Below, in pieces: positions 4,390-24,000 of a stretch of 24,000 bases of DNA; the first letter of the stretch is position 1, and each line of letters begins with the position of its first letter. Both the position numbers and the translations under genes were made by a program. The DNA is taken from assembly GCF_004341945.1 (NCBI RefSeq), contig NZ_SMBP01000001.1, forward strand, positions 1 to 24,000, read 5' to 3'. The notes below the pieces were generated by a model. The model was not told the DNA's origin and ran no database searches. It was given only the letters and a program-made list of their open reading frames with translations. Source of the stretch: Longicatena caecimuris (GTDB lineage Bacteria > Bacillota_I > Bacilli_A > Erysipelotrichales > Erysipelotrichaceae).

Positions 4390-4748
4390 TCGGCAGCGTT
4401 GCGGCAGTCGCTGGTCATTTGACTAGAGGAAAGTCCATGCTCGCACGATCTGTGATGATCGTAGTGTTTGTGCTGGATGAAACAATAAATCCAGGCAGTG
4501 TAATTACTGACGGCTGAAGGAAACCTAAGGGAAACTATGGTGTACTTCTTTAAAAGTGCCACAGAGACGAGCTTTTATGGAAACATAGAAGATGGAACGG
4601 GTAAACCCCGCAAGCGAGAAACCCAAATTTGGTAGGGGAACCTGCTGGAGGTGAAGTGAAATCATCCGGTGGGGCGTTTGAAAAAACGCAGATAAATGAC
4701 TGCCACTCCATTGGAGTACAGAACATGGCTTATGCAATGAAACCGTAG
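4390..4748 (+). ncRNA. rnpB: RNase P RNA, bacterial type B (Firmicute type)
   Basis: Universally conserved blocks are present: AGAGGAAAGTCCATGCTCGCAC (4425-), AGTGCCACAGAGACGA, GGTAAACCCCGCAAGCGAGAAACCCAAATTTGGTAGGGGAAC and ACAGAACATGGCTTA (4718-). P1 can form between CGGCAGCGTTGC (4391-4402) and GCAATGAAACCG (4734-4745). The ends are approximate, within about 5 nt. Confidence 0.92.
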
Positions 4749-9739: not shown

Positions 9740-10525
9740 ATGAAAGTCTTATTTATAGGAGATATCGTAGGAGCTGTCGGAAGGGAAACTGTGAGCCGGC
9801 AGCTTCCTCTTTTGAAACAGCAGTATGCCATTGACTTGGTAATTGCAAATGGTGAAAATGCTGCTCATGGGAAAGGTATTACCCGCCGCATTTATAACCA
9901 ATTGCTGGCCTGTGGGATTGATGTCATCACCATGGGAAACCATACATTTTCTAAAAATGATATTTATCAGTTTATCGATGAAGCTGAGCGTATGGTACGC
10001 CCTGCCAACATGGAACCTTTAGAATATGGGGAACATACCGTTGTGATAAAGGTGCAGGGAAAACGTGTTGCCATCACGAATTTAAGTGGTGAAGTTTGGA
10101 TGAACAATGTAATAGATTCGCCGTTTTATTGCATGGAAGATATTCTTCAAGAAGTGGAAGCGGATATTTATCTGGTTGATCTTCATGCTGAGGCAACGAG
10201 CGAAAAAATCGCTTTTACGTATTGTTTTGCGGATCGCTTAAGTGCTGTGGTTGGCACACATACGCACGTACAAACAGCAGATGAACGAATCGTGTATGGA
10301 TGTGCGGCTATTACGGATTTGGGGATGTGCGGTGCATATACCAGTGTTTTAGGACGTGATGTGAATGAAATAGTAACGCGTTTTACAACACAAGAGAAGA
10401 CCAAATTCAAAATTGCTGAAGGTGAAGGAATTTTCTGTGGCGCTTTGGTGGATATCGATGATGCAACGAATCGCGCAATAGGTATCAAACGCATTCAGAT
10501 ACGTCCAGAACATGTTGAATGTTAA
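9740..10525 (+). CDS. ymdB: YmdB-family metallophosphoesterase (2',3'-cyclic-nucleotide 2'-phosphodiesterase)
   Basis: MKVLFIGDIVG..GR, VIANGENAAHGKGIT, ITMGNHTF, VDLHAEATSEK and GTHTHVQTADERI are the YmdB/TIGR00282-type signature. It lies immediately downstream of rny, as in B. subtilis. Confidence 0.9.
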   Translation: MKVLFIGDIVGAVGRETVSRQLPLLKQQYAIDLVIANGENAAHGKGITRRIYNQLLACGIDVITMGNHTFSKNDIYQFIDEAERMVRPANMEPLEYGEHTVVIKVQGKRVAITNLSGEVWMNNVIDSPFYCMEDILQEVEADIYLVDLHAEATSEKIAFTYCFADRLSAVVGTHTHVQTADERIVYGCAAITDLGMCGAYTSVLGRDVNEIVTRFTTQEKTKFKIAEGEGIFCGALVDIDDATNRAIGIKRIQIRPEHVEC

Positions 10526-10536
10526 TTGCTTAAAAT

Positions 10537-10582
10537 AGGAAGAAAGACAATGGAAAACCATTGAATGTTCTTCCTTTTTTTG
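10537..10582 (+). terminator. Intrinsic terminator after ymdB
   Basis: AGGAAGAA (10537-10544) pairs with TTCTTCCT (10568-10575). There is an inner AATGG/CCATT pairing, followed by a T-run of 7 or more. Confidence 0.75.
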
Positions 10583-10694
10583 AGTTTGATTGCTTTCATC
10601 TTTCTAACAGGTAAATGTTTAAAGCCTTATTTAGGGGAAACTTTATGATGATCGGATATGTACAAGAAAAGATTTCTCAAAGGGTTGTTCATAG

Positions 10695-10738
10695 TTTTGT
10701 GAAAGACGTAACAAGTGCGTCTTCACAAAAGTATTTTT
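10695..10738 (+). other. Strong imperfect hairpin (13 bp, one bulged A) followed by a T-run; function unclear (second terminator, sRNA end or protein operator)
   Basis: TTTTGTGAA(A)GACG (10695-10708), 9-nt loop, CGTCTTCACAAAA (10718-10730), then GTATTTTT. The outer arms are exactly TTGTGAA / TTCACAA. Confidence 0.4.
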
Positions 10739-10750
10739 GGCTTTAAATGC

Positions 10751-10779
10751 TTGCATGTCCTTGGAGATATTGGTATAAT
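10751..10779 (+). promoter_or_regulatory. Sigma-A-type promoter for the small ferredoxin gene
   Basis: TTGCAT (10751-10756), 17-nt spacer, TATAAT (10774-10779). AAAGGAGGA SD lies at 10792-10800. Confidence 0.65.
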
Positions 10780-10807
10780 AGGAATGGTTGTAAAGGAGGA
10801 ATAAAGA

Positions 10808-10981
10808 ATGCCAGTAAATGTAAATGCTGATACTTGCATCGGTTGTGGTGCTTGTGTAGGAGTTTGCCCAGTTGGAGCTTTATCCATGAACGCTGATTCT
10901 AAATCAGAATGCGATGAAGGAACTTGTATTGACTGCGGATCTTGTATTTCCGCTTGTCCAGTAGAAGCAATCTCTCAGTAA
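10808..10981 (+). CDS. Clostridial-type 2x[4Fe-4S] ferredoxin, 57 aa (not in the supplied ORF track)
   Basis: My translation is MPVNVNADTCIGCGACVGVCPVGALSMNADSKSECDEGTCIDCGSCISACPVEAISQ. It has two CxxCxxCxxxCP motifs. A perfect SD lies 7 nt upstream, and the gene has its own promoter and terminator. Confidence 0.88.
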   Translation: MPVNVNADTCIGCGACVGVCPVGALSMNADSKSECDEGTCIDCGSCISACPVEAISQ

Positions 10982-11008
10982 ACCAAGTAGAAATGCTTGG
11001 TTTTTTTA
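10981..11008 (+). terminator. Intrinsic terminator after the ferredoxin gene
   Basis: AACCAAG (10981-10987) pairs with CTTGGTT (10996-11002), followed by a T-run to 11007. Confidence 0.7.
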
Positions 11009-11067
11009 AGTCAAGATCATCCACTTAGGATGTTTATTATATTAGAAAAAAGAAAGCAGGGAAGTAA

Positions 11068-12507
11068 ATGAAAACACAGCCAGGATGGGCGTTGCCTAAT
11101 TTGCATGAGGCCCAAAAACGTACACAGAAAGAAGTCACGATTGAAAAAAGCTTGTTTCAAATACCTAGTGAAGTTAGAACACTGGGACAGGGAAAGAAAT
11201 ACTATCTAAGAACTTATGGATGTCAGGCGAATGAACGCGATTCTGAAACCTTGGCAGGTATTTTAGAAGAATTGATGTTTACACCGGTAGAACACCCTGA
11301 ACAGGCTGATTTGATTTTGTTAAACACATGTGCTATTCGTAAAAATGCTGAGGATAAGGTGTTGGGCGAGATCGGTTCTTTAAAGCGTTTGAAACGAAGC
11401 AATCCAGATTTGATTTTTGGTTTGTGTGGTTGTATGGCACAAGAAGAAGATGTCGTACAAGTGTTATTAGAAAAATATCGCCATGTCAATCTTATTTTTG
11501 GAACACATAACCTTCATCGTTTACCAGAACTTTTGTATGAGGTGATGGTTGGGCATAAGCGTAGTGTCGAGGTGTTGTCAAAAGAAGGCGATGTCATTGA
11601 AAATCTTCCGGTAAGACGTTTTGGCAAACATAAGGCTTGGGTCAATATTATGTATGGATGTGATAAATTTTGTACATATTGCATCGTCCCTTATACTAGA
11701 GGAAAAGAACGTTCCCGAGCTATGGCAGATGTATTGCAAGAAATACGTCAGTTAAAACAAGATGGCTATAAAGAAATTACATTGCTGGGGCAGAATGTTA
11801 ATTCTTATGGAAAAGATTTGCATATCGAAGGTGGTTTTGCGAAATTGTTGGAGGAAACGGCGAAAATTGGCATAGAACGTATTCGTTTTACAACAAGCCA
11901 TCCATGGGATTTTAGTGATGAGATGATTGATGTGATTGCACGTTATGACAATATTATGCCATTTATACATCTGCCGGTACAAAGTGGTGATGATGAAATT
12001 CTGAAGATTATGGGGCGTCGTTATACAAACGCACAATATCTCACCTTATTCCATAAGATCAAAGAACGTATGCCAGAGTGTGCAATCTCTACAGATATCA
12101 TTGTGGGTTTTCCTAATGAAAGCGAAGGACAGTTCCAACATACGTTAGATCTAGTGAAAGAATGTCAGTTCGATAATGCTTTTACCTTTATTTATTCTCC
12201 ACGAGAAGGAACACCGGCTGCACGTATGGCGGATAGTGTATCTTTGGAAGTCAAACAGCGTCGCTTGGCGGAACTTAATGCTTGTTGGAATCAGTATGCT
12301 CACGTTAAAAATGAGGCATATCTCGGTAAAGTAGTCAAGGTATTGGTGGATGGCGCCAGCAAGAAAAAGGCGAATGTATGGAGTGGCTATACAGAAACCA
12401 ATAAGCTCGTAAATTTTACTGGTGAGCATGTGACTGCTGGAGATATCGTAAAAGTGAAAATCACAGCATGCAAGACATTTTCTTTAGATGGTGAACAAAT
12501 TCTATAA
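11068..12507 (+). CDS. miaB: tRNA (i6A37) methylthiotransferase MiaB (radical SAM)
   Basis: The N-terminal UPF0004 domain carries Cys residues (YGCQANERDSE, LNTCAIRKNAE, GCMAQ). The radical-SAM motif is CDKFCTYC, and there is a C-terminal TRAM domain. The length (479 aa) and overall collinearity fit MiaB/YmcB. Confidence 0.93.
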   Translation: MKTQPGWALPNLHEAQKRTQKEVTIEKSLFQIPSEVRTLGQGKKYYLRTYGCQANERDSETLAGILEELMFTPVEHPEQADLILLNTCAIRKNAEDKVLGEIGSLKRLKRSNPDLIFGLCGCMAQEEDVVQVLLEKYRHVNLIFGTHNLHRLPELLYEVMVGHKRSVEVLSKEGDVIENLPVRRFGKHKAWVNIMYGCDKFCTYCIVPYTRGKERSRAMADVLQEIRQLKQDGYKEITLLGQNVNSYGKDLHIEGGFAKLLEETAKIGIERIRFTTSHPWDFSDEMIDVIARYDNIMPFIHLPVQSGDDEILKIMGRRYTNAQYLTLFHKIKERMPECAISTDIIVGFPNESEGQFQHTLDLVKECQFDNAFTFIYSPREGTPAARMADSVSLEVKQRRLAELNACWNQYAHVKNEAYLGKVVKVLVDGASKKKANVWSGYTETNKLVNFTGEHVTAGDIVKVKITACKTFSLDGEQIL

Positions 12508-14376: not shown

Positions 14377-16773
14377 ATGGCAGCAAAAAAGAAAACAAAG
14401 AAAGCGCAAAAGAAAAAACAGGCAGCTGAAAATGAAATTCTGGTTTATATTTATGCCTTGGTCCTCATTACCTTATCCATTATCGGATGTCTGGAAATTG
14501 GCTTTTTAGGCAATCTGATCACAGGTGTTATCCAATATGTGACTGGAAATCTATATGGTGTCGTTTACGGTCTTATCATTGTTTTTTCCTTCATGTGGAT
14601 GCTTAAGAAAAATATTAGCGATGTACCTCTGAAATATACAACAGGGGTCATCGTTTTACTGAGCGCATGGCTAATTGCGGCAAGTCTGCCTAATGATGAA
14701 AAACTAACGGGGATGGACATACTATCCCATTTTCTTGGCAACAGTGCGCAAGTTTTTCATGGTGAACAGATTGGTGGTGGACTGATTGGTGCTTTTCTTG
14801 TGTCCATCACGACTTTTTTGGTGGATTATACGGGTACTAAGATCATTATCATCGCTTTAGTGGTCTTAGGCTGTATTTTGCTTATATCAGGGCCTTTATT
14901 TGCGTATTTACGGCAAGGGGCATCCGCATTCCAAAAGCCTTTTTCCTCAATGAAAGAAAATGCTCAAGCCAAACGTGAACAGCGACGAAATAAGAAAGCG
15001 TTGAAAAAGGAACAAAAGGTCGAAAAGACGAGTGAACAAGCAAATACCACACCTGCTAAGGAAAGCATGTTTGGTAAGATCAACTTGGAAGAACGCGTTC
15101 GTCCAGGACAGGTGTCTTTCTTAGATGTGGATGATGAGTTTGATATTATTACGGATGGTCGCAATGATGCTTTTGAACCGCTTGTGTCAAGCCAGGATGC
15201 TCATGAGGAAGAGGATGAGGTTGTCATAGGTTTTGGTACAGCTTCAAAAGCCGTGCAACAGCAAAAGGAAGATAAACGAATCATTGAAGAAACGATAGGA
15301 AAAAGTGATACATTCGTAAGTAGTTTTAAAGAGGATTGGTCAAAATATAAGTTGCCTAAGCTGACCTTGTTAAATGATATAGGAAAAAAAGCCCGCAGTA
15401 CTGCGAATATCAAGGCAGCAAATGAAAGTGGCCAGCGGTTGATTGAAATCTTAGATGAATTTGGTGTACGTGCTACTTTAATGGCTACGCACATTGGACC
15501 ATCTGTCACTAAATTTGAAGTAAAGCCGGATCTTGGCGTGCGTGTCAATAAAATCAGCAATTTGCAATATGATATTAAAATGGCACTAGCAGCAAAAGAT
15601 ATCCGAATTGAAGCACCGATACCTGGCAAAAGTGCTGTTGGCATCGAGATTCCCAATGTGGAAAAAACTAGTGTTAGCATGAAAGAATTGATGAAATCAG
15701 TTCCGGAAAAGTACCAGGATAAAAAAATGTTGTTTGCCTTAGGAAAAGATCTCATGGGCAGCTGTGTATATGGAGAACTCAACAAGATGCCCCATTTGTT
15801 AATTGCTGGAGCAACCGGAAGCGGGAAAAGTGTATGTGTGAATTCTATCATTACCTCTATATTAATGCGTGCAAGACCAGATGAGGTCAAGTTGCTATTA
15901 GTAGATCCCAAAAAGGTGGAGTTTACACCTTATAAGCAAATTCCCCATCTGTTAGGTCCGGTCATTACCGATGGAGAGGAAGCAAATCGCGCCTTAAAGG
16001 TAATTGTGGCCATGATGGATAAACGCTATGAACTATTTGCTATGGCGGGTGTACGTAACATTGCCGGCTATAATACATATATTGAAAATCATCCTGAGGA
16101 TGGTTTAGAAAAACTACCGTGGATCGTTGTCATCATAGATGAATTAGCTGATTTAATGTTAGTTGCAGCGAAAGAGGTTGAAGCAAGTATTCAACGTATT
16201 ACGCAGTTGGCACGCGCAGCCGGGATTCATTTGATCGTAGCCACACAACGCCCTAGTGTCGATGTTATCACTGGTGTCATTAAGGCCAATATTCCATCGC
16301 GTATCGCTTTTGCGGTATCTAGCGCTGTGGATTCACGAACGATACTGGACCAGATGGGTGCAGAAAAGCTCTTAGGTTATGGAGATATGTTATATATCCC
16401 GGTGGGAGAGACCAATCCTACCCGTGTACAAGGTGTGTTTGTAAGTGATGCGGAGGTACAGAGCATTTGTGACTTTGTCAGTGCCCAAGGAAAACCCAAA
16501 TATGAGGATGCTTTTTTACGTTTAGAGGCTGTAGATAGTGAATATGCTGCTACGCAGGAAAGTGCAGATCCCTTGTATGAAGAGGTAAAATCTTTTATAA
16601 TAAGTACTAGGAAGGCTAGTACATCATTGATACAGCGTAAGTTCAGTATTGGCTATGCCAGAGCTGCGCGGTTGATCGACGTATTGGAGGAACAAGGCGT
16701 TATCGGACCTAGTCGTGGTTCTAAGCCGCGTGAGGTGCTTGTACGCTATGAGGAGGATGATTTTGATGAGTAG
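14377..16773 (+). CDS. ftsK: DNA translocase FtsK/SpoIIIE
   Basis: N-terminal polytopic membrane domain, then a charged low-complexity linker. The motor domain has Walker A GATGSGKS and Walker B VVIIDELADL. The C-terminal gamma winged-helix reads SLIQRKFSIGYARAARLIDVLEEQGVIGP. AAGGGAGGA SD lies upstream of ATG 14377. Confidence 0.96.
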   Translation: MAAKKKTKKAQKKKQAAENEILVYIYALVLITLSIIGCLEIGFLGNLITGVIQYVTGNLYGVVYGLIIVFSFMWMLKKNISDVPLKYTTGVIVLLSAWLIAASLPNDEKLTGMDILSHFLGNSAQVFHGEQIGGGLIGAFLVSITTFLVDYTGTKIIIIALVVLGCILLISGPLFAYLRQGASAFQKPFSSMKENAQAKREQRRNKKALKKEQKVEKTSEQANTTPAKESMFGKINLEERVRPGQVSFLDVDDEFDIITDGRNDAFEPLVSSQDAHEEEDEVVIGFGTASKAVQQQKEDKRIIEETIGKSDTFVSSFKEDWSKYKLPKLTLLNDIGKKARSTANIKAANESGQRLIEILDEFGVRATLMATHIGPSVTKFEVKPDLGVRVNKISNLQYDIKMALAAKDIRIEAPIPGKSAVGIEIPNVEKTSVSMKELMKSVPEKYQDKKMLFALGKDLMGSCVYGELNKMPHLLIAGATGSGKSVCVNSIITSILMRARPDEVKLLLVDPKKVEFTPYKQIPHLLGPVITDGEEANRALKVIVAMMDKRYELFAMAGVRNIAGYNTYIENHPEDGLEKLPWIVVIIDELADLMLVAAKEVEASIQRITQLARAAGIHLIVATQRPSVDVITGVIKANIPSRIAFAVSSAVDSRTILDQMGAEKLLGYGDMLYIPVGETNPTRVQGVFVSDAEVQSICDFVSAQGKPKYEDAFLRLEAVDSEYAATQESADPLYEEVKSFIISTRKASTSLIQRKFSIGYARAARLIDVLEEQGVIGPSRGSKPREVLVRYEEDDFDE

Positions 16774-18274
16774 AGTAAAAGATATTATCAGTGACCCTAC
16801 ACTAACTTATCAGCAACAATTATTGGCATTAGCCAGATTGGCTGAAAACGATGATGATTCATTACCTTTAAAACCGGAGATGAAAAAGGCATTGGAGGAA
16901 GAAACTTTATGTGATTTAGGAGAAGGAAGAGCACCTTATCGCCCTCGCTATATCTTGCCGGATTATCAAAAGTTGATGAAAGAAGGTTGCGCATTTTTAG
17001 GCTTGCAGCCACCGACAGATATCTGGGAAGCTACCAATGCTTTATTAATTATGTACAAACATGTTCCAAGCATTACTTCTTTTCCTGTCTATCTGGGTAA
17101 CTTTGCTGATTTATTCACTCCATTTGATAAGGACGAAGAAGAAACGCGTAAAGCGTTGCGTCTGTTTTTGCTGCATATCGATAAAACGTTGACGGATTCT
17201 TTTGTACATGCCAACATCGGACCAGAAGATTGTCGTGTGGCAAGAATCATCTTAGATCTAACAAAAGAAATGCAGTTAGCAATACCAAATGTTACTTTAT
17301 TGTATGATCCAGAACGGACAAGCGATGAGTTTGCGAAAGCCTGCATTGATTGTATGCTGGCAACAGCTAAACCAAGCTTTGCTAATGATGTCATGTATCG
17401 ACAAGATGGTATCGGAGAATATGGCATCGCCAGTTGCTACAATGCGTTAAAGATCGGTGGAGGCGGTTATACGCTGCCAAGAATACGCTTATATAATGTA
17501 GCTAGCAAGGCAAAAGATAAAGCTGATTTCATGGAGCATATCTTACCATATTATGTAAACATGATGTTAGAATTTATGGACGATCGTATTCGCTATATCG
17601 TAGAGGAAAGTAACTTTTTCAAGGCTAATTTCTTGGTAAAAGAAGGCTTTGTTAAACGTGAAAACTTCACAGGTATGTTTGGTGTTGTAGGCTTGGCAGA
17701 ATGCTGCAACCATCTTTTAGGTATAAAAGATCCTAAGGAAGGTTATGGACATAATGAAAAAGCACATCAACTTGGTGTCGAAATCATGAATGCGATTGAA
17801 ACGATGGTAAAAAACCATCATGGTCTGTATTGTGAAGGCTGTCATAACCAATATGTGCTGCATGCACAGGTTGGTATCGACAGTGATGGCCGCGAAAATT
17901 CACCAGGTGCTCGTATCCCGATTGGCTGTGAACCGGATTTATGTGATCATATCGCTGTAGAGTGCAATTTCCATAAGTATTTTGTATCCGGAATCGGTGA
18001 TATCTTTAAATTTGATGATACATGGAACAATACACCGGATGCATTATTGGATATCATCAAGGGAGCCTTTGCTCAAGGTATGCGCTATTTTACCGGCTAT
18101 AATGCGGATAATGATGTAGTACGCGTGACCGGATATCTGGTAAAGAAAAGTGAAATTGAAAAATTGGACCGCCAAGAAGCAAGTTTGAATAATGTGACCG
18201 TGTTTGGACAGGGAGCACGTAACACAGCAAACGCTCTGGATCGTCGTGTATATGATGAAAGCGCCCGTAAATAA
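16766..18274 (+). CDS. yjjI: YjjI-family glycyl-radical enzyme (DUF3029 type), 502 aa, substrate unknown
   Basis: A C-terminal glycyl-radical fingerprint VVRVTGYLV is present (Gly codon 18131-18133). Size and layout resemble E. coli YjjI rather than 750-850 aa canonical GREs, and a dedicated activase lies immediately downstream. The start at ATG 16766 follows AGGAGGA (16751-16757) and overlaps the ftsK stop by 8 nt. The track start at 16715 lies inside the ftsK gamma domain. Confidence 0.85.
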   Translation: MSRVKDIISDPTLTYQQQLLALARLAENDDDSLPLKPEMKKALEEETLCDLGEGRAPYRPRYILPDYQKLMKEGCAFLGLQPPTDIWEATNALLIMYKHVPSITSFPVYLGNFADLFTPFDKDEEETRKALRLFLLHIDKTLTDSFVHANIGPEDCRVARIILDLTKEMQLAIPNVTLLYDPERTSDEFAKACIDCMLATAKPSFANDVMYRQDGIGEYGIASCYNALKIGGGGYTLPRIRLYNVASKAKDKADFMEHILPYYVNMMLEFMDDRIRYIVEESNFFKANFLVKEGFVKRENFTGMFGVVGLAECCNHLLGIKDPKEGYGHNEKAHQLGVEIMNAIETMVKNHHGLYCEGCHNQYVLHAQVGIDSDGRENSPGARIPIGCEPDLCDHIAVECNFHKYFVSGIGDIFKFDDTWNNTPDALLDIIKGAFAQGMRYFTGYNADNDVVRVTGYLVKKSEIEKLDRQEASLNNVTVFGQGARNTANALDRRVYDESARK

Positions 18275-19091
18275 GATCATTCCTTTTTCCAATGTAGATG
18301 GCCCAGGTAATCGCTGCGCCATCTTTTTTCAAAGCTGTCCCTTCTCCTGTTTGTATTGCCATAATCCCGAAACAATCCATATGTGCATGCATTGCGGGGA
18401 CTGCGTTACAACTTGTCCAACAAACGCTTTGACATTGGAAGCGGGAAAGGTCTTGTGGAATTCTGAGAAATGCGTAGATTGTGATACATGTATTCATACG
18501 TGTACGCATTTAGCATCACCTAAGATACGCTATATGAGCGTAGAAGAATTAGTTGAGCAAATCAAAGCTAAAAAAGCTTTTCTGCGAGGAATCACGGTGA
18601 GTGGAGGAGAGTGTATGAATCATGCGGCTTTCCTATTGGACCTATTTAAAAAAGTAAAAAAGCTTGGGTTAACATGTTTGATTGACAGTAATGGGTATTA
18701 CGACTTTTCACAATATCCTCAGCTGATGGCAGTTTGTGATGGGGTCATGTTGGATGTCAAAGCAGTTGATGCAAAATTTCATCAATATCTTACCGGCTGT
18801 GACAATACTATGGTATTAAAAAATCTAGCGTATTTGTTACATACACAGAAGTTGGAAGAAGTACGTACGGTGATTTTACCTAATCAAGATTTACAAAATG
18901 AGAAAACAGTACGCTATGTCAGTGAGCTTTTGAAACAGCAAAGTCGATATAAACTGATACGGTACCGCCAATATGGAGTGCGTGAAGAAGGTTTGAAAGC
19001 GCTGGGAAATACAACGGTTTCGCAAATGTATGTGGCTCAGTATAAGCAAATCTGTGAGGAAAATGGTAATACGACTTCGATCATAATCTAG
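18252..19091 (+). CDS. yjjW: YjjW-type glycyl-radical enzyme activating enzyme (radical SAM)
   Basis: IIPFSNVDGPGNRCAIFFQSCPFSCLYCHNP contains the CX3CX2C radical-SAM cluster. Two ferredoxin-like motifs follow: CMHCGDCVTTCP and CVDCDTCIHTC. ITVSGGE is the SAM-binding motif. It is collinear with my recollection of E. coli YjjW. The start is at ATG 18252 (or 18255), overlapping the yjjI end by 23 nt with no strong SD, which suggests coupling. Confidence 0.85.
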   Translation: MMKAPVNKIIPFSNVDGPGNRCAIFFQSCPFSCLYCHNPETIHMCMHCGDCVTTCPTNALTLEAGKVLWNSEKCVDCDTCIHTCTHLASPKIRYMSVEELVEQIKAKKAFLRGITVSGGECMNHAAFLLDLFKKVKKLGLTCLIDSNGYYDFSQYPQLMAVCDGVMLDVKAVDAKFHQYLTGCDNTMVLKNLAYLLHTQKLEEVRTVILPNQDLQNEKTVRYVSELLKQQSRYKLIRYRQYGVREEGLKALGNTTVSQMYVAQYKQICEENGNTTSIII

Positions 19092-19113: not shown

Positions 19114-19142
19114 TTGACAAAAGATAAGATTAATTGTAAACT
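19114..19142 (+). promoter_or_regulatory. Sigma-A-type promoter for the BMP lipoprotein gene
   Basis: TTGACA (19114-19119), 17-nt spacer, TAAACT (19137-19142). Confidence 0.55.
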
Positions 19143-19187
19143 TTTGATAGGACCATTAGGAAGGTCGAATAAATGGAGGAGAACCTT

Positions 19188-20255
19188 ATGAACAAATTTG
19201 CAAAACTGAGTTTGGTCGCGATGATGGCTGCGACAACTCTTGCCGGTTGCGGCAGCAAAGACGATGGTGACAGCAAGAAGAAAGACTGTCCGGTAAAAAT
19301 CGGCTTTGTTACGGATACCGGTGGTATTGATGACCACTCATTCAATGAGGGTTCATGGAAAGGTATTGAAAAGTTCGCAAAAGACAATAATATCAGTACG
19401 GACTGCATCAAGTATCTACAATCAAAAGGTGATGCTGACTATGAACCAAACCTAAATCAGTTATCAGAAGATGGTTATGATTTAGTTGTTGCAGCTGGTT
19501 ATAAATTTAATGATGCAATGGCAAATGTATCAAAAGCAAATCCAGATACAAAATTCTTGGTAATCGATACGGTGATTGATTCTGAAAACGTACAGAGTGC
19601 TACCTTTAAAGCAGAAGAATCTTCTTATTTAGCTGGTGTGGCTGCAGCTATGCAGGCAAAGGCTGAAGGCGGAAATGCTGTTGGCTTTATCGGTGGTGAA
19701 GATGTTGATTTGATTCGTGCTTTCCAGGCTGGTTTTGAACAAGGTGTTAAATCAGTAGATAAAAACATCAAAATTTATGTAGATTATGCTGGTGGTTATG
19801 ATAAAACGGAAAAAGGTACATCTTTAGCTGAAAAACATTACTCTGCAGGCGCTAAGGTTATTTATCACGCAGCAGGTGGTACTGGAAACGGTGTCTTCGC
19901 TGCAGCCAAAGACCGCGCTAAAAAAGGTGAAAAAGTTTGGGTTATCGGTGTTGATTCCGATCAGTTCAGCACAGGTATCTATGATAAGAAAGAAAATAAA
20001 TCTGTAACTTTAACTTCTGCTTTGAAACGTGTAGATGCTGTTACAGAGGCTGTTTCTAAATCTGTATTGGACAACAAGTTTAAAGCTGGTTTACAGACTT
20101 ATGACAGTTCAAATGATGGTGTAGGTTTACCTGATGAAAATCCTAACCTGTCTGATGACATCAAGAAAGCTGTTGAAGATGCATCTGCTAAAATTAAATC
20201 TGGTGAAATCAAAGTTTCTGCAGAACGTACGATTGCTCCAGGAAGCAACGGTTAA
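19188..20255 (+). CDS. BMP-family (PnrA/TmpC/NupN-like) ABC transporter substrate-binding lipoprotein, probably nucleoside-binding
   Basis: Lipoprotein signal peptide MNKFAKLSLVAMMAATTLAGC with lipobox LAGC. BMP-family blocks are present: KIGFVTDTGGIDDHSFNEGSWKG, GYDLVVAAGYKF, FIGG and VIGVDSDQ. The start is at ATG 19188 (GGAGGA SD). ATG 19173 also has an SD (AGGAAGGT) but would add an acidic MEENL prefix. Confidence 0.88.
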   Translation: MNKFAKLSLVAMMAATTLAGCGSKDDGDSKKKDCPVKIGFVTDTGGIDDHSFNEGSWKGIEKFAKDNNISTDCIKYLQSKGDADYEPNLNQLSEDGYDLVVAAGYKFNDAMANVSKANPDTKFLVIDTVIDSENVQSATFKAEESSYLAGVAAAMQAKAEGGNAVGFIGGEDVDLIRAFQAGFEQGVKSVDKNIKIYVDYAGGYDKTEKGTSLAEKHYSAGAKVIYHAAGGTGNGVFAAAKDRAKKGEKVWVIGVDSDQFSTGIYDKKENKSVTLTSALKRVDAVTEAVSKSVLDNKFKAGLQTYDSSNDGVGLPDENPNLSDDIKKAVEDASAKIKSGEIKVSAERTIAPGSNG

Positions 20256-20274: not shown

Positions 20275-20303
20275 AAAGTCTCTCTTGTGAGAGACTTTTT
20301 TTG
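20275..20303 (+). terminator. Intrinsic terminator after the binding-protein gene
   Basis: AAAGTCTCTC (20275-20284), loop TTGT, GAGAGACTTT (20289-20298), with the T-run continuing to 20302. Confidence 0.8.
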
Positions 20304-20531: not shown

Positions 20532-22058
20532 ATGACTTATGCAGTTGAACTGCTGAATATCACAAAAGATTTTCCTGGTATTCGTGCAAATGACAATGTG
20601 ACTGTACGCCTAAAGCAAGGGAGCATTCATGCTTTGCTTGGTGAAAATGGTGCGGGAAAATCTACACTGATGTCCATTTTGTTTGGCTTATATCAGCCAA
20701 CCAGTGGAACGATCAAGGTAAATGGCAAAGAAGTCAAGATCAATGATCCAAATGATGCAACCCAGCTAGGCATTGGTATGGTGCACCAGCATTTTAAACT
20801 GGTGGAATGCTTTACAGTTACTGAAAATATCATCCTTGGTATGGAACCTACCAAATTTGGTATGGTAGATATTAAATCAGCGGCGAAGAAAATCGAAGAA
20901 TTTTCTAAGATGTATGGTTTAAATGTTGATCCATATGCCAAAATTTCCGATATTACGGTTGGCATGCAACAGCGTGTAGAAATATTAAAAATGCTCTACC
21001 GCAATGCAAACATTTTGATTTTTGATGAACCTACTGCTGTATTAACACCACAGGAAATTGAAGATTTGATGGAAATCATGCAAAAGCTGATTAAAGAAGG
21101 AAAAAGTATTTTGCTTATCACACATAAGCTGAATGAAATCAAGCAAGTTGCTGATGAGTGCAGTGTATTGCGTCGTGGAAAATATATCGGTACGGTCAAT
21201 GTTGCAGAAACATCGACACAGCAAATGGCCGAAATGATGGTCGGTCGTGAAGTGAATTTTAAGGTAGAAAAAGGACCCCATGCTCCTGGTGAGGTGGTTT
21301 TGGAAACAAGACATCTGAATGTAAAAAATAGTAAAGGCGTCTTAGGACTTAAGGATTTTAATTTAAGCGTACGGGCAGGGGAAATCGTTGGTATTGCTGG
21401 TATTGATGGAAATGGACAGGAAGAACTTGTGCATGCATTAAGCGGTTTGACCTCTGTAGAGAGCGGTGAAATTCTTTTGAAGGGTGAAAATATTACCCAT
21501 ACAAGCATTCGTGATCGTTTTGATAAAGGAATGGGACATATACCAGAAGATCGTCATAAGCATGGACTCATACTTGATTTCCATTTAAAAGAAAACTTTA
21601 TTATTCATGAATATGATCGTAAGCCATATTGTAAAAACATGATCATGCAACAAGATGTTATGGATGCGTATGCTGATAAACTGATTGAAGAATTTGATGT
21701 GCGAAGCGGTGAAGGTAAGGATTCCCTTACACGCAGTATGTCCGGTGGTAATCAGCAAAAAGCAATTATTGCCCGTGAGATTGAGCGCAGTCCCGATTTG
21801 TTGTTAGTCGTACAACCAACGCGTGGTTTAGATGTTGGGGCAATTGAATACATACATAAAAGAATCATCGCTGAGCGTGATGCAGGAAAAGCCGTTCTTC
21901 TAGTATCTTTTGAGTTAGATGAAGTTTTGGATCTTTCCGATCGTATCGTTGTTCTATTTGATGGACATAAAAATGGGGAAATGCTGGCAAAAGATACGGA
22001 TGACAAGGAATTGGGTCTTTATATGTCAGGTTCAAAGAAGGGAAGTGAAGATGAATGA
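20532..22058 (+). CDS. ABC transporter ATP-binding protein with duplicated ATPase domains (NupO/YufO/RnsA-like, partner of BMP systems)
   Basis: The first domain has Walker A GENGAGKST, the signature variant VGMQQRVEI and Walker B ILIFDEPT. The second domain has a degenerate Walker A GIDGNGQEE, signature MSGGNQQK and Walker B LLVVQPTRGLD. Confidence 0.93.
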   Translation: MTYAVELLNITKDFPGIRANDNVTVRLKQGSIHALLGENGAGKSTLMSILFGLYQPTSGTIKVNGKEVKINDPNDATQLGIGMVHQHFKLVECFTVTENIILGMEPTKFGMVDIKSAAKKIEEFSKMYGLNVDPYAKISDITVGMQQRVEILKMLYRNANILIFDEPTAVLTPQEIEDLMEIMQKLIKEGKSILLITHKLNEIKQVADECSVLRRGKYIGTVNVAETSTQQMAEMMVGREVNFKVEKGPHAPGEVVLETRHLNVKNSKGVLGLKDFNLSVRAGEIVGIAGIDGNGQEELVHALSGLTSVESGEILLKGENITHTSIRDRFDKGMGHIPEDRHKHGLILDFHLKENFIIHEYDRKPYCKNMIMQQDVMDAYADKLIEEFDVRSGEGKDSLTRSMSGGNQQKAIIAREIERSPDLLLVVQPTRGLDVGAIEYIHKRIIAERDAGKAVLLVSFELDEVLDLSDRIVVLFDGHKNGEMLAKDTDDKELGLYMSGSKKGSEDE

Positions 22059-23158
22059 AAAATAAAGATGCTTTAAAAATATCACTTCTGGCAATTCTGT
22101 TTGGTGTTTTGTTAGGAGTTGTTATCCTTCTCTTAACAGGACGTGATCCTTTCTATTTGTTTTATGGTTTAGTGCGTGGTGCCAGTGGTCTAGATTTAAT
22201 CAAAGGTGGCTCTATCAATCCGCGTTATATCGGTGAATTTATTGTTGCTAGTATGCCAATTATTTTAACAGGACTATCGGTTGCCTTTGCTTATCGTACC
22301 GGTTTGTTTAATATCGGTGCAGAAGGGCAGCTAATGGTGGGAGCTTGTGCATCTATTGCAACTGCCGTCTTATTCCCACAGATTCCTGTTGTTCATATGC
22401 TAGTTTCTGTATTGGCAGGCATACTTGCGGGGGCTGCATGGGGCTTTTTGCCGGGAATCTTAAAGAGTAAGTTTAATCTTCATGAAGTTGTTATTTGTAT
22501 CATGATGAATTATATCGGTATGTACTTAGCTAATTATGTATATGTACAACTTCCGGGTTCGGATACGTCACGAACAGCTTTGATACCGGAATCGGCAAGC
22601 TTAAGCAATTCTTTCTTTGAATCTTTGACGAACCATTCACGTTTAAATCTAGGTATTTTCTTTGTCATCCTAGCTGTTTTGGCATATTGGTTTATCATTG
22701 AGAAAACAAGCTTTGGGTATGGCTTGCGTGCTACGGGTTTTAATAAAGAAGGTGCTCGTTATGCCGGCATGAAGGTAGAACGTAACATCGTCTATTCTAT
22801 GATGATTGCTGGTGCAATGGCTGGCTTAGCCGGTGCGATCATTTCCCTTGGAACTTTTAACTATGGACGTGTATTATCTTCTTTTGAAAATTATGGTTTT
22901 GATGGTATTGCCGTTGCCTTAACGGGTGCCTGCAATGCTATTGGTGTTGTATTAGCTGGCTTACTGTTCGGTTTGTTAAAGGTGGCACAGCCAATCTTAC
23001 AATCCGTAGGTATTCCTAAGGAAATCGGAGAGATTATATCAGCTGCTATCGTATTATTTGTGGCAATGCAGTATGGCATTCGCATTATATTAAATAAGTT
23101 ATCGAAATTGCGTCATAAAAAGGACGCAAAAGAGCCGAAGGGAGAGAAGAGTGTATGA
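22055..23158 (+). CDS. ABC transporter permease (NupP/YufP-like, BMP-system membrane subunit)
   Basis: A 367-aa polytopic membrane protein with FNIGAEGQ, GLRATGFN..GARYAGM and GFDGIAVAL blocks typical of this permease family. The start overlaps the ATPase stop (ATGA). Confidence 0.9.
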   Translation: MKNKDALKISLLAILFGVLLGVVILLLTGRDPFYLFYGLVRGASGLDLIKGGSINPRYIGEFIVASMPIILTGLSVAFAYRTGLFNIGAEGQLMVGACASIATAVLFPQIPVVHMLVSVLAGILAGAAWGFLPGILKSKFNLHEVVICIMMNYIGMYLANYVYVQLPGSDTSRTALIPESASLSNSFFESLTNHSRLNLGIFFVILAVLAYWFIIEKTSFGYGLRATGFNKEGARYAGMKVERNIVYSMMIAGAMAGLAGAIISLGTFNYGRVLSSFENYGFDGIAVALTGACNAIGVVLAGLLFGLLKVAQPILQSVGIPKEIGEIISAAIVLFVAMQYGIRIILNKLSKLRHKKDAKEPKGEKSV

Positions 23159-24000
23159 CCTTATTATTTCAGATGTTTCCTTTGGCACTTGGTGTCGCTA
23201 CTCCAATTGTTATATGTGCACTAGGTGGATTATTTTCTGAACGAAGCGGTATAGTAAATATTGCATTGGAAGGCATTATGCTTGTTGGAGCTTTCTTTGG
23301 TGCTACCGTTTCTTTATTGTTGGAAAGCTCTTTTGGTAGTTTAGCACCTTGGATCGGTATTTTAGCCGGTTTGTTGGCAGGTTGTCTGTATTCTTTAATA
23401 CATGCTTTTGTATCTGTAAGTTTAAAAGCAGATCAAACCATTTCTGGTACAGCATTAAATATGCTATCAACAGGACTTACTGTCTATCTATGTCAGATTA
23501 TCTTTAATGCACAGCGTTCTGAACAATTCATTGAAAGCTTTTCAAGAATATCAGTGCCCGTTTTAAAGGATATACCAGTACTTGGACCATTATTCTTCAC
23601 AAATGTATTTCCAACCTTTTATTTAGCGATTGCTTTGGCAATCATTACCTGGTTTGTTGTATTTAAGACAAAGTTTGGTCTGCATCTGCGCTCTTGTGGT
23701 GAGTATCCGCAAGCCAGTGCTTCCATGGGAATCCATGTGGAAAAAATGCGCTATATCGGTGTCTTGATTTCCGGTTGCTTAGGTGGTTTAGCAGGTGCTA
23801 TTATGGTACTGTCATTGGATGTTCAGTTTACAGTATTCTCTATTCATGGAATTGGTTTTATATCCATGGCTTGTTTGATTTTTGGTAAGTGGAAACCATT
23901 TGGCTGTTTAGGGGCCGGTATCTTCTTTGGTTTCTCGCAGGTGTTGAGTGATTATTCTGGACAGATTCCCTTCTTAAAATCACTGCCTAGTGAAGTATTC
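23155..24000 (+). CDS. Second ABC transporter permease (NupQ/YufQ-like); 3' end lies outside the window (not in the ORF track)
   Basis: ATG 23155 overlaps the preceding stop (ATGA), and the frame stays open for 282 codons to the window edge. Translation: MTLLFQMFPLALGVATPIVICALGGLFSERSGIVNIALEGIMLVGAFF...GLHLRSCGEYPQASASMGI...GFISMACLIFGKW. It is polytopic and paralogous to the preceding permease. Confidence 0.88.
   Translation, partial: MTLLFQMFPLALGVATPIVICALGGLFSERSGIVNIALEGIMLVGAFFGATVSLLLESSFGSLAPWIGILAGLLAGCLYSLIHAFVSVSLKADQTISGTALNMLSTGLTVYLCQIIFNAQRSEQFIESFSRISVPVLKDIPVLGPLFFTNVFPTFYLAIALAIITWFVVFKTKFGLHLRSCGEYPQASASMGIHVEKMRYIGVLISGCLGGLAGAIMVLSLDVQFTVFSIHGIGFISMACLIFGKWKPFGCLGAGIFFGFSQVLSDYSGQIPFLKSLPSEVF

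Follow-up and report, generated by a model that had tools for sequence, protein, structure and literature searches.

The first 24,000 nucleotides of contig NZ_SMBP01000001.1 of Longicatena caecimuris (the “window”, meaning the whole stretch that was analyzed) contain two overlapping genes, yjjI and yjjW, which encode a glycyl-radical enzyme of the YjjI family and its radical S-adenosylmethionine (SAM) activase. In a number of other lineages this pair (together yjjIW) lies beside genes for nucleoside uptake and breakdown. The association recurred in a hold-out set of loci, and we infer from these gene neighborhoods that yjjIW serves in the anaerobic use of imported nucleosides. The window locus is an intact copy of the pair, in which both frames are full-length and every family-invariant residue is present.

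Searches with profile hidden Markov models (HMMs) placed both proteins far beyond chance. YjjI matched TIGR04040 over residues 3 to 495 of 502 with 695.7 bits (cutoff 498.3, E=2.8e-209) and the Pfam YjjI-like family PF11230 (formerly DUF3029) with E=1.5e-212. YjjW matched TIGR04041 with 361.9 bits (cutoff 250.2, E=2.1e-108). An earlier reading made from the DNA letters alone (the “sequence-only reading”) had proposed this family identity; the scores above the curated cutoffs bear it out, and the two proteins are full-length orthologues of b4380 and b4379 of Escherichia coli. Its description of the proteins also holds. The 502-amino-acid (aa) frame is in place and carries the C-terminal motif VVRVTGYLV, in which GGA at 18131–18133 is the codon for G456, and the 279-aa radical-SAM protein overlaps it by 23 nt and has CPFSCLYC and two CX2CX2CX3C clusters. 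The next-best activase models for YjjW were those for the HypD activase (149 bits) and TIGR02494 (138 bits), so by sequence it is an activase of the dehydratase/PflC type, not of the NrdG type.

The E. coli K-12 proteins are 40% (YjjI, 516 aa) and 45% (YjjW) identical to those of the window over their full lengths. Both pairs have the SCYN Cys loop, the RVTGY Gly loop and a three-cluster activase, and both loci have the order yjjI-yjjW, a gene overlap and adjoining nucleoside genes. The E. coli pair is divergent from deoCABD and is directly activated by FNR, whereas the window pair has ftsK upstream and a Bmp-type nucleoside ATP-binding cassette (ABC) importer downstream, and a search of the window for FNR/CRP boxes gave no signal (38 matches, 30.6 expected). 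Among the matches listed, the closest relatives come from uncultured Erysipelotrichaceae and Massilicoli (77–85% identity), the nearest being of the same length; one metagenome contig (L152) has a sequence identical to the window. When 1.84 billion representatives clustered at 50% identity were searched with HMMER, 485 matched at E≤1e-3. Only about 20 of these were full-length clusters, each sharing 37% or more identity with the window YjjI. P0200, a more remote member at 26% identity, is nonetheless matched by PF11230.

A pattern scan with one genome per species yielded at least 588 confirmed YjjI relatives. The family is represented in Bacillota, Fusobacteriota, Spirochaetota, Victivallales, Gammaproteobacteria and some Archaea, and carriers of the pair include E. 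coli, Salmonella, Vibrio, Clostridium, Fusobacteria, spirochaetes and gut Erysipelotrichaceae. In two archaeal loci (L089, 8001–10364, and L090) the YjjI homologues are flanked by genes for eIF-1A, NMD3, eIF-2-beta and RIO1, and the partner activase is shorter (247–251 aa) and has no two-cluster ferredoxin insert. Conservation across domains of life suggests that YjjI acts on a widespread metabolite and not on some niche nutrient. The window locus is thus an ordinary representative of a known, catalogued family and would not surprise a specialist. As a side observation, a 574-aa predicted protein on a 2.9-kb E. coli contig (P0274) combines YjjI-like and DeoC Pfam domains; it is probably an assembly or gene-calling artefact, since yjjI and deoC are divergent in K-12.

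The sequence-only reading had stated that no substrate, reaction or role was established for the family, and none was found in the PDB or in the searched literature. Papers that name yjjI offer expression data or network inference only, with no biochemical or genetic function found in them. FNR directly binds and activates E. coli yjjI (PMC3688515), and anaerobic conditions induce the gene in Yersinia intermedia (PMC3792023). Its clustering with nar genes prompted others to guess at “nitrogen metabolism” (PMC3228777), and an E. coli network study put YjjI into a module of “nucleotide transport and deoxyribonucleoside degradation” (PMC2672614). A glycyl-radical enzyme review of June 2026 makes no mention of the family (PMC13450708).

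Gene neighborhoods were compared in a discovery set of 80 genome loci and about 15 more from exact-protein look-ups, in which open reading frames (ORFs) were called and clustered. In essentially all loci examined, yjjI stands next to yjjW. Pfam families were counted without a prior hypothesis over 139 neighbor clusters within 3 kb and over 103 immediate neighbors, and no universal third partner emerged; the commonest families were histidine kinases, GNAT acetyltransferases and YbaK-like domains, and no metabolic family dominated. Regulators recur: a Crp/Fnr-family gene is present in 10 loci of several orders, directly upstream in most, and response-regulator/histidine-kinase pairs adjoin yjjIW in five or more clusters. 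A convergent LysR gene always lies 3′ of the pair in Vibrio, Photobacterium, Shewanella and a relative (L088, L093, L094 and L095; about 10440–11450), where no nucleoside genes are nearby. In other discovery loci, nucleoside genes recur near yjjIW in unrelated arrangements (Table 1).

Because this theme was noticed after the fact, a hold-out set was built of 80 metagenome loci fetched after the idea arose, using an alignment headed by a different clade with the same seed proteins, and its key genes were confirmed against curated models. Lineages were collapsed at 80% YjjI identity. At least one nucleoside gene lies within 2 kb of yjjIW in 11 of 73 discovery groups and in 8 of the 29 hold-out groups whose lineages were absent from discovery; the genes found there encode Bmp/PnrA ABC importers, NupC, DeoD, DeoB, Pdp, Cdd, nucleoside hydrolases, ribokinase and uridine kinase. 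The density of nucleoside genes in the discovery set was 0.063 per kb within 2 kb and 0.020 per kb at 2–8 kb (ratio 3.2); the corresponding hold-out values were 0.121 and 0.037 (ratio 3.3). For orientation, eleven single-copy families in a 3-Mb genome would give about 0.004 per kb, which is our rough estimate, not a computed value. The association is real and replicated, and it covers only about 15–28% of lineages. In hold-out loci from at least two lineages (L119, L143 and L174), yjjIW interrupts the transporter operon between the genes for the Bmp binding protein and the ATPase, where an enzyme pair would not normally be expected. The sequence-only reading had called the pair an “orphan”. 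That description does not fit its position directly upstream of a Bmp/PnrA nucleoside importer, a kind of neighborhood that recurs across phyla.

Conservation was counted over 52 YjjI sequences, down to 36% identity. Invariant positions include E53, R61, Y62, H148, N175, S223, C224, N226, R239, E293, H366, Q368, R383, R453, G456 and R493. Y225 is kept in 51 of the 52. C224 is the only invariant cysteine; C49, which had seemed conserved among near relatives, was considered as a second catalytic cysteine of the ribonucleotide reductase kind and rejected, being H, D or Y in 6 of the 52 sequences. In comparisons made with hhalign and a PDB profile search, C224 aligns with C419 and S223 with C418 of pyruvate formate-lyase (PFL). 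The segment PYRPRYILPDY of YjjI resembles AYGRGRIIGDY of PFL, which carries R176, and R239 follows C224 by 15 residues where R435 of PFL follows C419 by 16. From these likenesses, the R61 strand motif is a candidate equivalent of PFL R176, and R239, by its spacing, one of R435. Both PFL arginines bind the carboxylate of pyruvate. R61, R239, R383, H148 and H366 (three arginines and two histidines that the model described below places on barrel strands) would suit an anionic substrate group such as phosphate or carboxylate. The formate-dependent reduction of class III ribonucleotide reductase (NrdD) uses cysteine and methionine partners. With neither these partners nor the Cys-Cys pair of PFL, YjjI would be expected to catalyze a single-thiyl, redox-neutral reaction (elimination, cleavage or rearrangement).

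We tentatively propose that the substrate of YjjI is a pentose phosphate, either ribose-5-phosphate or 2-deoxyribose-5-phosphate, and that it undergoes a redox-neutral radical elimination or cleavage; this could well be correct, but we hold it with reserve. Two unrelated families of nucleoside transporters, Bmp-ABC and NupC, flank or enclose yjjIW, and two unrelated routes of base removal adjoin it, namely phosphorylase with phosphopentomutase and hydrolase with ribokinase. A pentose phosphate is proposed because both routes share only the free base and ribose-5-phosphate as products, and a sugar rather than a particular base because purine- and pyrimidine-specific enzymes both adjoin yjjIW. 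The deoC neighborhood of enterobacteria is the reason for including 2-deoxyribose-5-phosphate. The invariant R61, R239 and R383 would hold the substrate phosphate. Elimination or cleavage is preferred to a reduction of the ribonucleotide reductase type because only one cysteine is invariant. Structures of PflD and YbiW with bound sugar phosphates (8id0, 8id7) give a precedent for such substrates. Three points weigh against this proposal. No pathway known to us calls for radical chemistry on ribose-5-phosphate. Some three quarters of the lineages have no nearby nucleoside gene, their neighbors being regulators or unrelated genes. Finally, the nucleoside-related families were picked after the first examples had been seen, a bias that only the hold-out set escapes.

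A more specific version, which we regard as doubtful, is that YjjI is a radical (deoxy)ribose-5-phosphate dehydratase or lyase in an unreported anaerobic route that turns nucleoside ribose into C2 and C3 units independently of the pentose phosphate pathway. One possible route would pass through a 2-deoxy-3-keto intermediate to acetaldehyde and 3-phosphoglycerate, which is atom-balanced and redox-neutral; alternatively, 2-deoxygenation might feed the aldolase DeoC. If true, either route would apply ribonucleotide reductase-like chemistry to a free sugar phosphate instead of a nucleotide.

The same neighborhoods could be read, with somewhat less probability than we give the pentose phosphate, as those of an enzyme of nucleoside catabolism that acts on the intact nucleoside or the released base, for example by radical cleavage of the glycosidic C–N bond (as in the C–N lyases CutC and HplG) or by chemistry on the purine or pyrimidine ring. 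The transporters Bmp/PnrA and NupC are indeed the most frequent nucleoside-type neighbors, adenosine-type MtaD/DadD-like deaminases adjoin yjjIW in two unrelated loci, and the closest fold is that of NrdD, which binds nucleotides. However, the base-removing enzymes DeoD, Pdp and nucleoside hydrolases are usually encoded in the same operons, and ribokinase and phosphopentomutase, which act on the sugar only, are direct neighbors. The occurrence of both purine- and pyrimidine-specific genes indicates no single base, and the regions of NrdD that bind nucleotide effectors are absent from YjjI.

We give a similar probability to the reading in which the pair is real but its substrate has nothing to do with nucleosides, the neighborhoods reflecting lineage-specific synteny and the substrate being another small anionic metabolite sensed by the flanking LysR, Crp or two-component regulators. 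In keeping with this, most lineages have no nucleoside neighbors, both hypothesis-free counts are topped by regulators, GNAT and YbaK-type families rather than nucleoside genes, and E. coli yjjI is co-expressed with genes of nitrate and nitrite respiration. In Erysipelotrichaceae the conserved upstream gene is ftsK, whereas the Bmp operon is present in some loci and absent in others. Synteny alone would not lead one to expect that the association replicates in the hold-out set at the same strength, nor that it involves transporters of two unrelated families and two ways of removing the base that are likewise unrelated; insertion of yjjIW between binding-protein and ATPase genes in several lineages is also hard to regard as an accident.

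The fold was predicted with AlphaFold2 from the 52-sequence alignment. The YjjI model is one compact domain (pLDDT 93, pTM 0.91) and carries no accessory domain beyond the barrel. In a Foldseek search of the PDB, the best matches were class III ribonucleotide reductases (E down to 2.7e-16, about 13% identity; template modeling (TM) score 0.69–0.76 for the best, down to 0.62), namely the NrdD structures of Prevotella copri (8p2c/8p23), S. thermophilus, T4 and T. maritima. PFL-type enzymes followed at E of about 1e-13 to 1e-10 (TM score 0.59–0.73, 11–14% identity) and comprised hydroxyproline dehydratases, PflD, YbiW, PFL, glycerol dehydratase and CutC. In the model, C224 is at the tip of a β-hairpin (strands 219–222 and 226–229) and G456 sits between strands 451–453 and 458–460. 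The modeled YjjI is therefore a trimmed canonical glycyl-radical barrel whose Cys and Gly loops occupy the customary finger hairpins. The sequence-only reading had held that so short an enzyme must organize its active-site barrel differently; because the model superposes on both NrdD and PFL-type enzymes, the barrel appears trimmed, not reorganized.

Sequence and profile searches of the PDB found no YjjI chain. Single-sequence matches were at noise level, and the profile gave weak matches to PFL and NrdD: the Gly loop aligned to IRVSGY of PFL and QRITGY of P. copri NrdD, and “GivGLAEC...” aligned to the latter protein. Compared with PFL-type enzymes, YjjI is about 260–300 residues shorter and has none of their long N-terminal elaborations. 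We take YjjI to be a third, minimal branch of the superfamily between ribonucleotide reductases and PFL-type enzymes, with which the profile comparisons agree.

The likeness to NrdD raises the question of whether YjjI might be a small, alternative class III ribonucleotide reductase that produces deoxyribonucleotides. Both proteins have a ten-stranded barrel whose finger loops bear the Cys and the Gly, the NrdD sequence can be aligned with the second half of YjjI (at GLAEC, for instance), the hhalign match to E. coli NrdD has a probability of 90% over 336 columns, and a partial, marginal Pfam NRDD match was obtained (28.7 bits). We nevertheless judge this very improbable. Against the NrdD equivalog TIGR02487 YjjI scores 18.1 bits (cutoff 326). 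It has no ATP-cone or effector site, and the Zn-ribbon that precedes the Gly loop in NrdD is absent, since YjjI has no cysteine after residue 400. The NrdD C175 position is occupied by R61/Y62 in the hhalign alignment, C49 is not conserved, and there is no methionine two residues before the radical cysteine. The activase is not of the NrdG type, which has no two-cluster ferredoxin insert, and E. coli has nrdDG in addition to the pair.

Equally remote is a short PFL-like lyase of 2-keto acids. The Cys loop and preceding strand do align best to PFL, “PNLT...YAIASCYN” matching “PN(L/M)T...YAIACCVS” with E=6.6e-4, and hhalign gives 78% probability to PflB over a segment that ends in the Cys loop. 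R61 and R239 would stand where PFL has R176 and R435, and in one spirochaete locus a D-2-hydroxyacid dehydrogenase gene lies 18 nt upstream. PFL requires a Cys-Cys pair, however, whereas the YjjI loop is invariantly Ser-Cys (Ser-Cys-Tyr-Asn in the window; the corresponding motif of the eliminases is Gly-Cys-Val-Glu). The other partial, marginal Pfam match of YjjI, also of 28.7 bits, is to the PFL-like family PF02901 and covers only 75 residues (160–234), the Pfam scan gave no match to the Gly_radical domain PF01228, and YjjI reaches the curated cutoff of no characterized PFL-type model. No recurrent neighbors of the pfl, focA, pta or ack type were found in the loci examined.

By family membership and conserved motifs, YjjI and YjjW would be a working glycyl-radical enzyme and its dedicated activase. 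The [4Fe-4S] cluster bound by the CX3CX2C motif of YjjW would cleave SAM to a 5′-deoxyadenosyl radical, with an electron supplied by the two ferredoxin-like clusters, and this radical would abstract a hydrogen from YjjI at G456. The glycyl radical stored there would, in the oxygen-free cell, pass to C224 on the neighboring finger loop; the resulting thiyl radical would abstract a hydrogen from the substrate, and the radical would return to the glycine after turnover. This core mechanism is proposed because of the HMM scores, the invariant G456, C224, R453 and SCYN residues, the barrel fold, the adjacency of yjjI and yjjW, and the anaerobic induction in E. coli and Yersinia.

In the window, the genes upstream of yjjI have housekeeping functions: PBP1A, recU, RNase P RNA, a RodZ-like gene, pgsA, cinA, recA and rny, as well as a YmdB-type phosphoesterase, miaB, RNase J and ftsK. 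The open frame of yjjI (16715–18274) opens with GTG at 16715; the ATG at 16766 gives 502 aa and agrees with homologues of 501–502 aa that align from residue 1. The second plus-strand frame (18204–19091) gives 279 aa from the ATG at 18252. YjjW also has the SAM-binding GGE motif (S117-G118-G119-E120). The ftsK 3′ end (stop codon 16771–16773) overlaps the yjjI start by 8 nt, and ftsK-yjjI adjacency is kept in about nine Erysipelotrichaceae loci. Due to this overlap, the strong internal ribosome-binding site and the conserved adjacency, the oxygen-sensitive YjjI seems to be co-transcribed and co-translated with a cell-division gene in this lineage. That the pair is a decaying or non-functional remnant is scarcely credible: nothing specific favors it beyond the lack of a dedicated adjoining regulator in this genome, and the frames, the invariant residues, the ribosome-binding site and nearest relatives that are 85% identical and of the same length all speak against it.

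The gap between yjjW and bmp is 81 nt, and no terminator was found between ftsK and yjjI, yjjI and yjjW, or yjjW and bmp. The binding protein, double ATPase and two permeases have what we take to be the standard architecture of PnrA / NupABC-BmpA / RnsBACD nucleoside importers. Directly after bmp is a strong terminator-like hairpin (20275–20298, plus strand; 10-bp stem and T-run), 234 nt before the ATPase gene, which may control how much binding protein is made relative to transporter. An Rfam scan found no riboswitch near yjjIW; its only match in the window was the class B RNase P RNA (4396–4737, plus strand; 288 bits, gathering score 97, full model length).

Table 1. Features of the window (upper rows) and arrangements of nucleoside-related genes around yjjIW in discovery and hold-out loci (lower rows).
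Feature or arrangement	Position or locus	Strand	Remarks
Ribosome-binding site GAGGAGG	16750..16756	+	9 nt 5′ of yjjI ATG, within ftsK 3′ end; read from sequence
yjjI, 502-aa YjjI-family glycyl-radical enzyme	16766..18274 (stop codon included)	+	PF11230, TIGR04040
Strand motif P60-R61-Y62-I-L-P65-D66-Y67	16943..16966	+	R61, Y62, P65 invariant, n=52
Cys loop S223-C224-Y225-N226	17432..17443	+	C224 is the predicted thiyl-radical cysteine
Invariant R239	17480..17482	+	15 residues after C224
Glycyl-radical motif R453-V-T-G456-Y457	18122..18136	+	R453, G456 invariant
yjjW, 279-aa radical-SAM activase	18252..19091 (stop codon included)	+	TIGR04041
YjjW radical-SAM cluster motif C29-x3-C33-x2-C36 (CPFSCLYC)	18336..18359	+	
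YjjW ferredoxin-like insert, two CX2CX2CX3C motifs (C45/48/51/55, C74/77/80/84)	18384..18503	+	Fer4 Pfam matches
Promoter-like site TTGACA-17-TAAACT between yjjW and bmp	19114..19142	+	Consensus match only
Bmp/PnrA-like lipoprotein, binding protein of nucleoside-type ABC importer	19173..20255	+	PF02608, E=5.8e-70
508-aa double ATPase and two BPD_transp_2 permeases	20532..24000	+	Second permease truncated by window edge
deoCABD divergent from yjjIW	E. coli, Edwardsiella		Edwardsiella also nupC after yjjW
crp< deoD-deoB-yjjI-yjjW-bmp-ATPase-permease-permease-cdd-pdp	Breznakia pachnodae		Gaps 3–76 nt
ftsK-yjjIW-bmp-ABC	Several Erysipelotrichaceae including window		
yjjIW-Bmp	Herbinix contig		
lacI< ribokinase-yjjIW	L024		24-nt gap; ribokinase TIGR02152 306.6 bits (cutoff 299.65)
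PfkB kinase divergent from yjjIW; bmp-ABC downstream	L017		
crp, pot-like ABC system, MtaD/DadD-like amidohydrolase, then yjjIW	L027		
PRK/uridine-kinase-family gene adjoining yjjW	L006		
yjjI-yjjW-nupC-deoD-rplK-rplA	L100/104/105/107 (hold-out)		TIGR00804 546 bits (cutoff 442); TIGR00107 415 bits (cutoff 232)
yjjIW-nupC	L113/117 (hold-out)		
bmp-yjjI-yjjW-ATPase-permease-permease	L119 (6736–13878), L143 (6408–14151) (hold-out)		
Uridine kinase, then bmp-yjjIW-ABC	L174 (6124–14046), L177 (hold-out)		TIGR00235 275 bits (cutoff 220)
yjjIW-ATPase-permease-permease-cdd-deoB	L172 (hold-out)		
yjjIW-bmp-ABC-MtaD/DadD-like deaminase-deoD	L145 (hold-out)		
Ribokinase-like gene, two inosine/uridine nucleoside hydrolases, deoD, sulfatase/phosphodiesterase-superfamily gene, yjjIW	L098 (hold-out)		
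ribokinase-yjjIW-x-nucleoside hydrolase	L156/159/160 (hold-out)		TIGR02152 334 bits (cutoff 300)

Three further kinds of neighbor were observed. The MtaD/DadD-group amidohydrolase genes in the yjjIW operons of two unrelated loci (L027, 8638–9969; L145, 15062–16438) encode proteins that resemble deaminases of 5′-deoxyadenosine, methylthioadenosine and guanine and fall below all equivalog cutoffs; 5′-deoxyadenosine is a by-product of radical-SAM enzymes such as YjjW. A dihydrofolate reductase gene (PF00186, E=8e-56) lies directly 3′ of yjjW in a Clostridium group (L040, 12449–12943; L075; L076). In each of three unrelated lineages, an α/β-hydrolase gene sits immediately beside yjjIW in the same orientation (L008, 8941–9798; L167, 5198–6151; and the archaeal L089, 7081–7923, where the gene is directly upstream of yjjI). 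The idea that these act as follow-up C–C hydrolases was left as speculation, since they belong to esterase-type families.

To our knowledge, YjjI is the last uncharacterized full-length glycyl-radical enzyme of E. coli. The family itself is already catalogued and is a long-standing puzzle present in that organism; what is new here is the nucleoside context, which emerged from a comparison of about 100 lineages and was replicated in the hold-out set. With this result, the question of YjjI function comes down to a few commercially available candidate substrates and to simple growth tests in E. coli. Since YjjI forms a minimal branch between ribonucleotide reductases and PFL-type enzymes, its chemistry would also inform how the glycyl-radical fold diversified. 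If the link to nucleoside ribose is true, yjjIW would constitute a new anaerobic branch of nucleoside catabolism, which would matter for gut bacteria that subsist on nucleic acids from the host and its diet.

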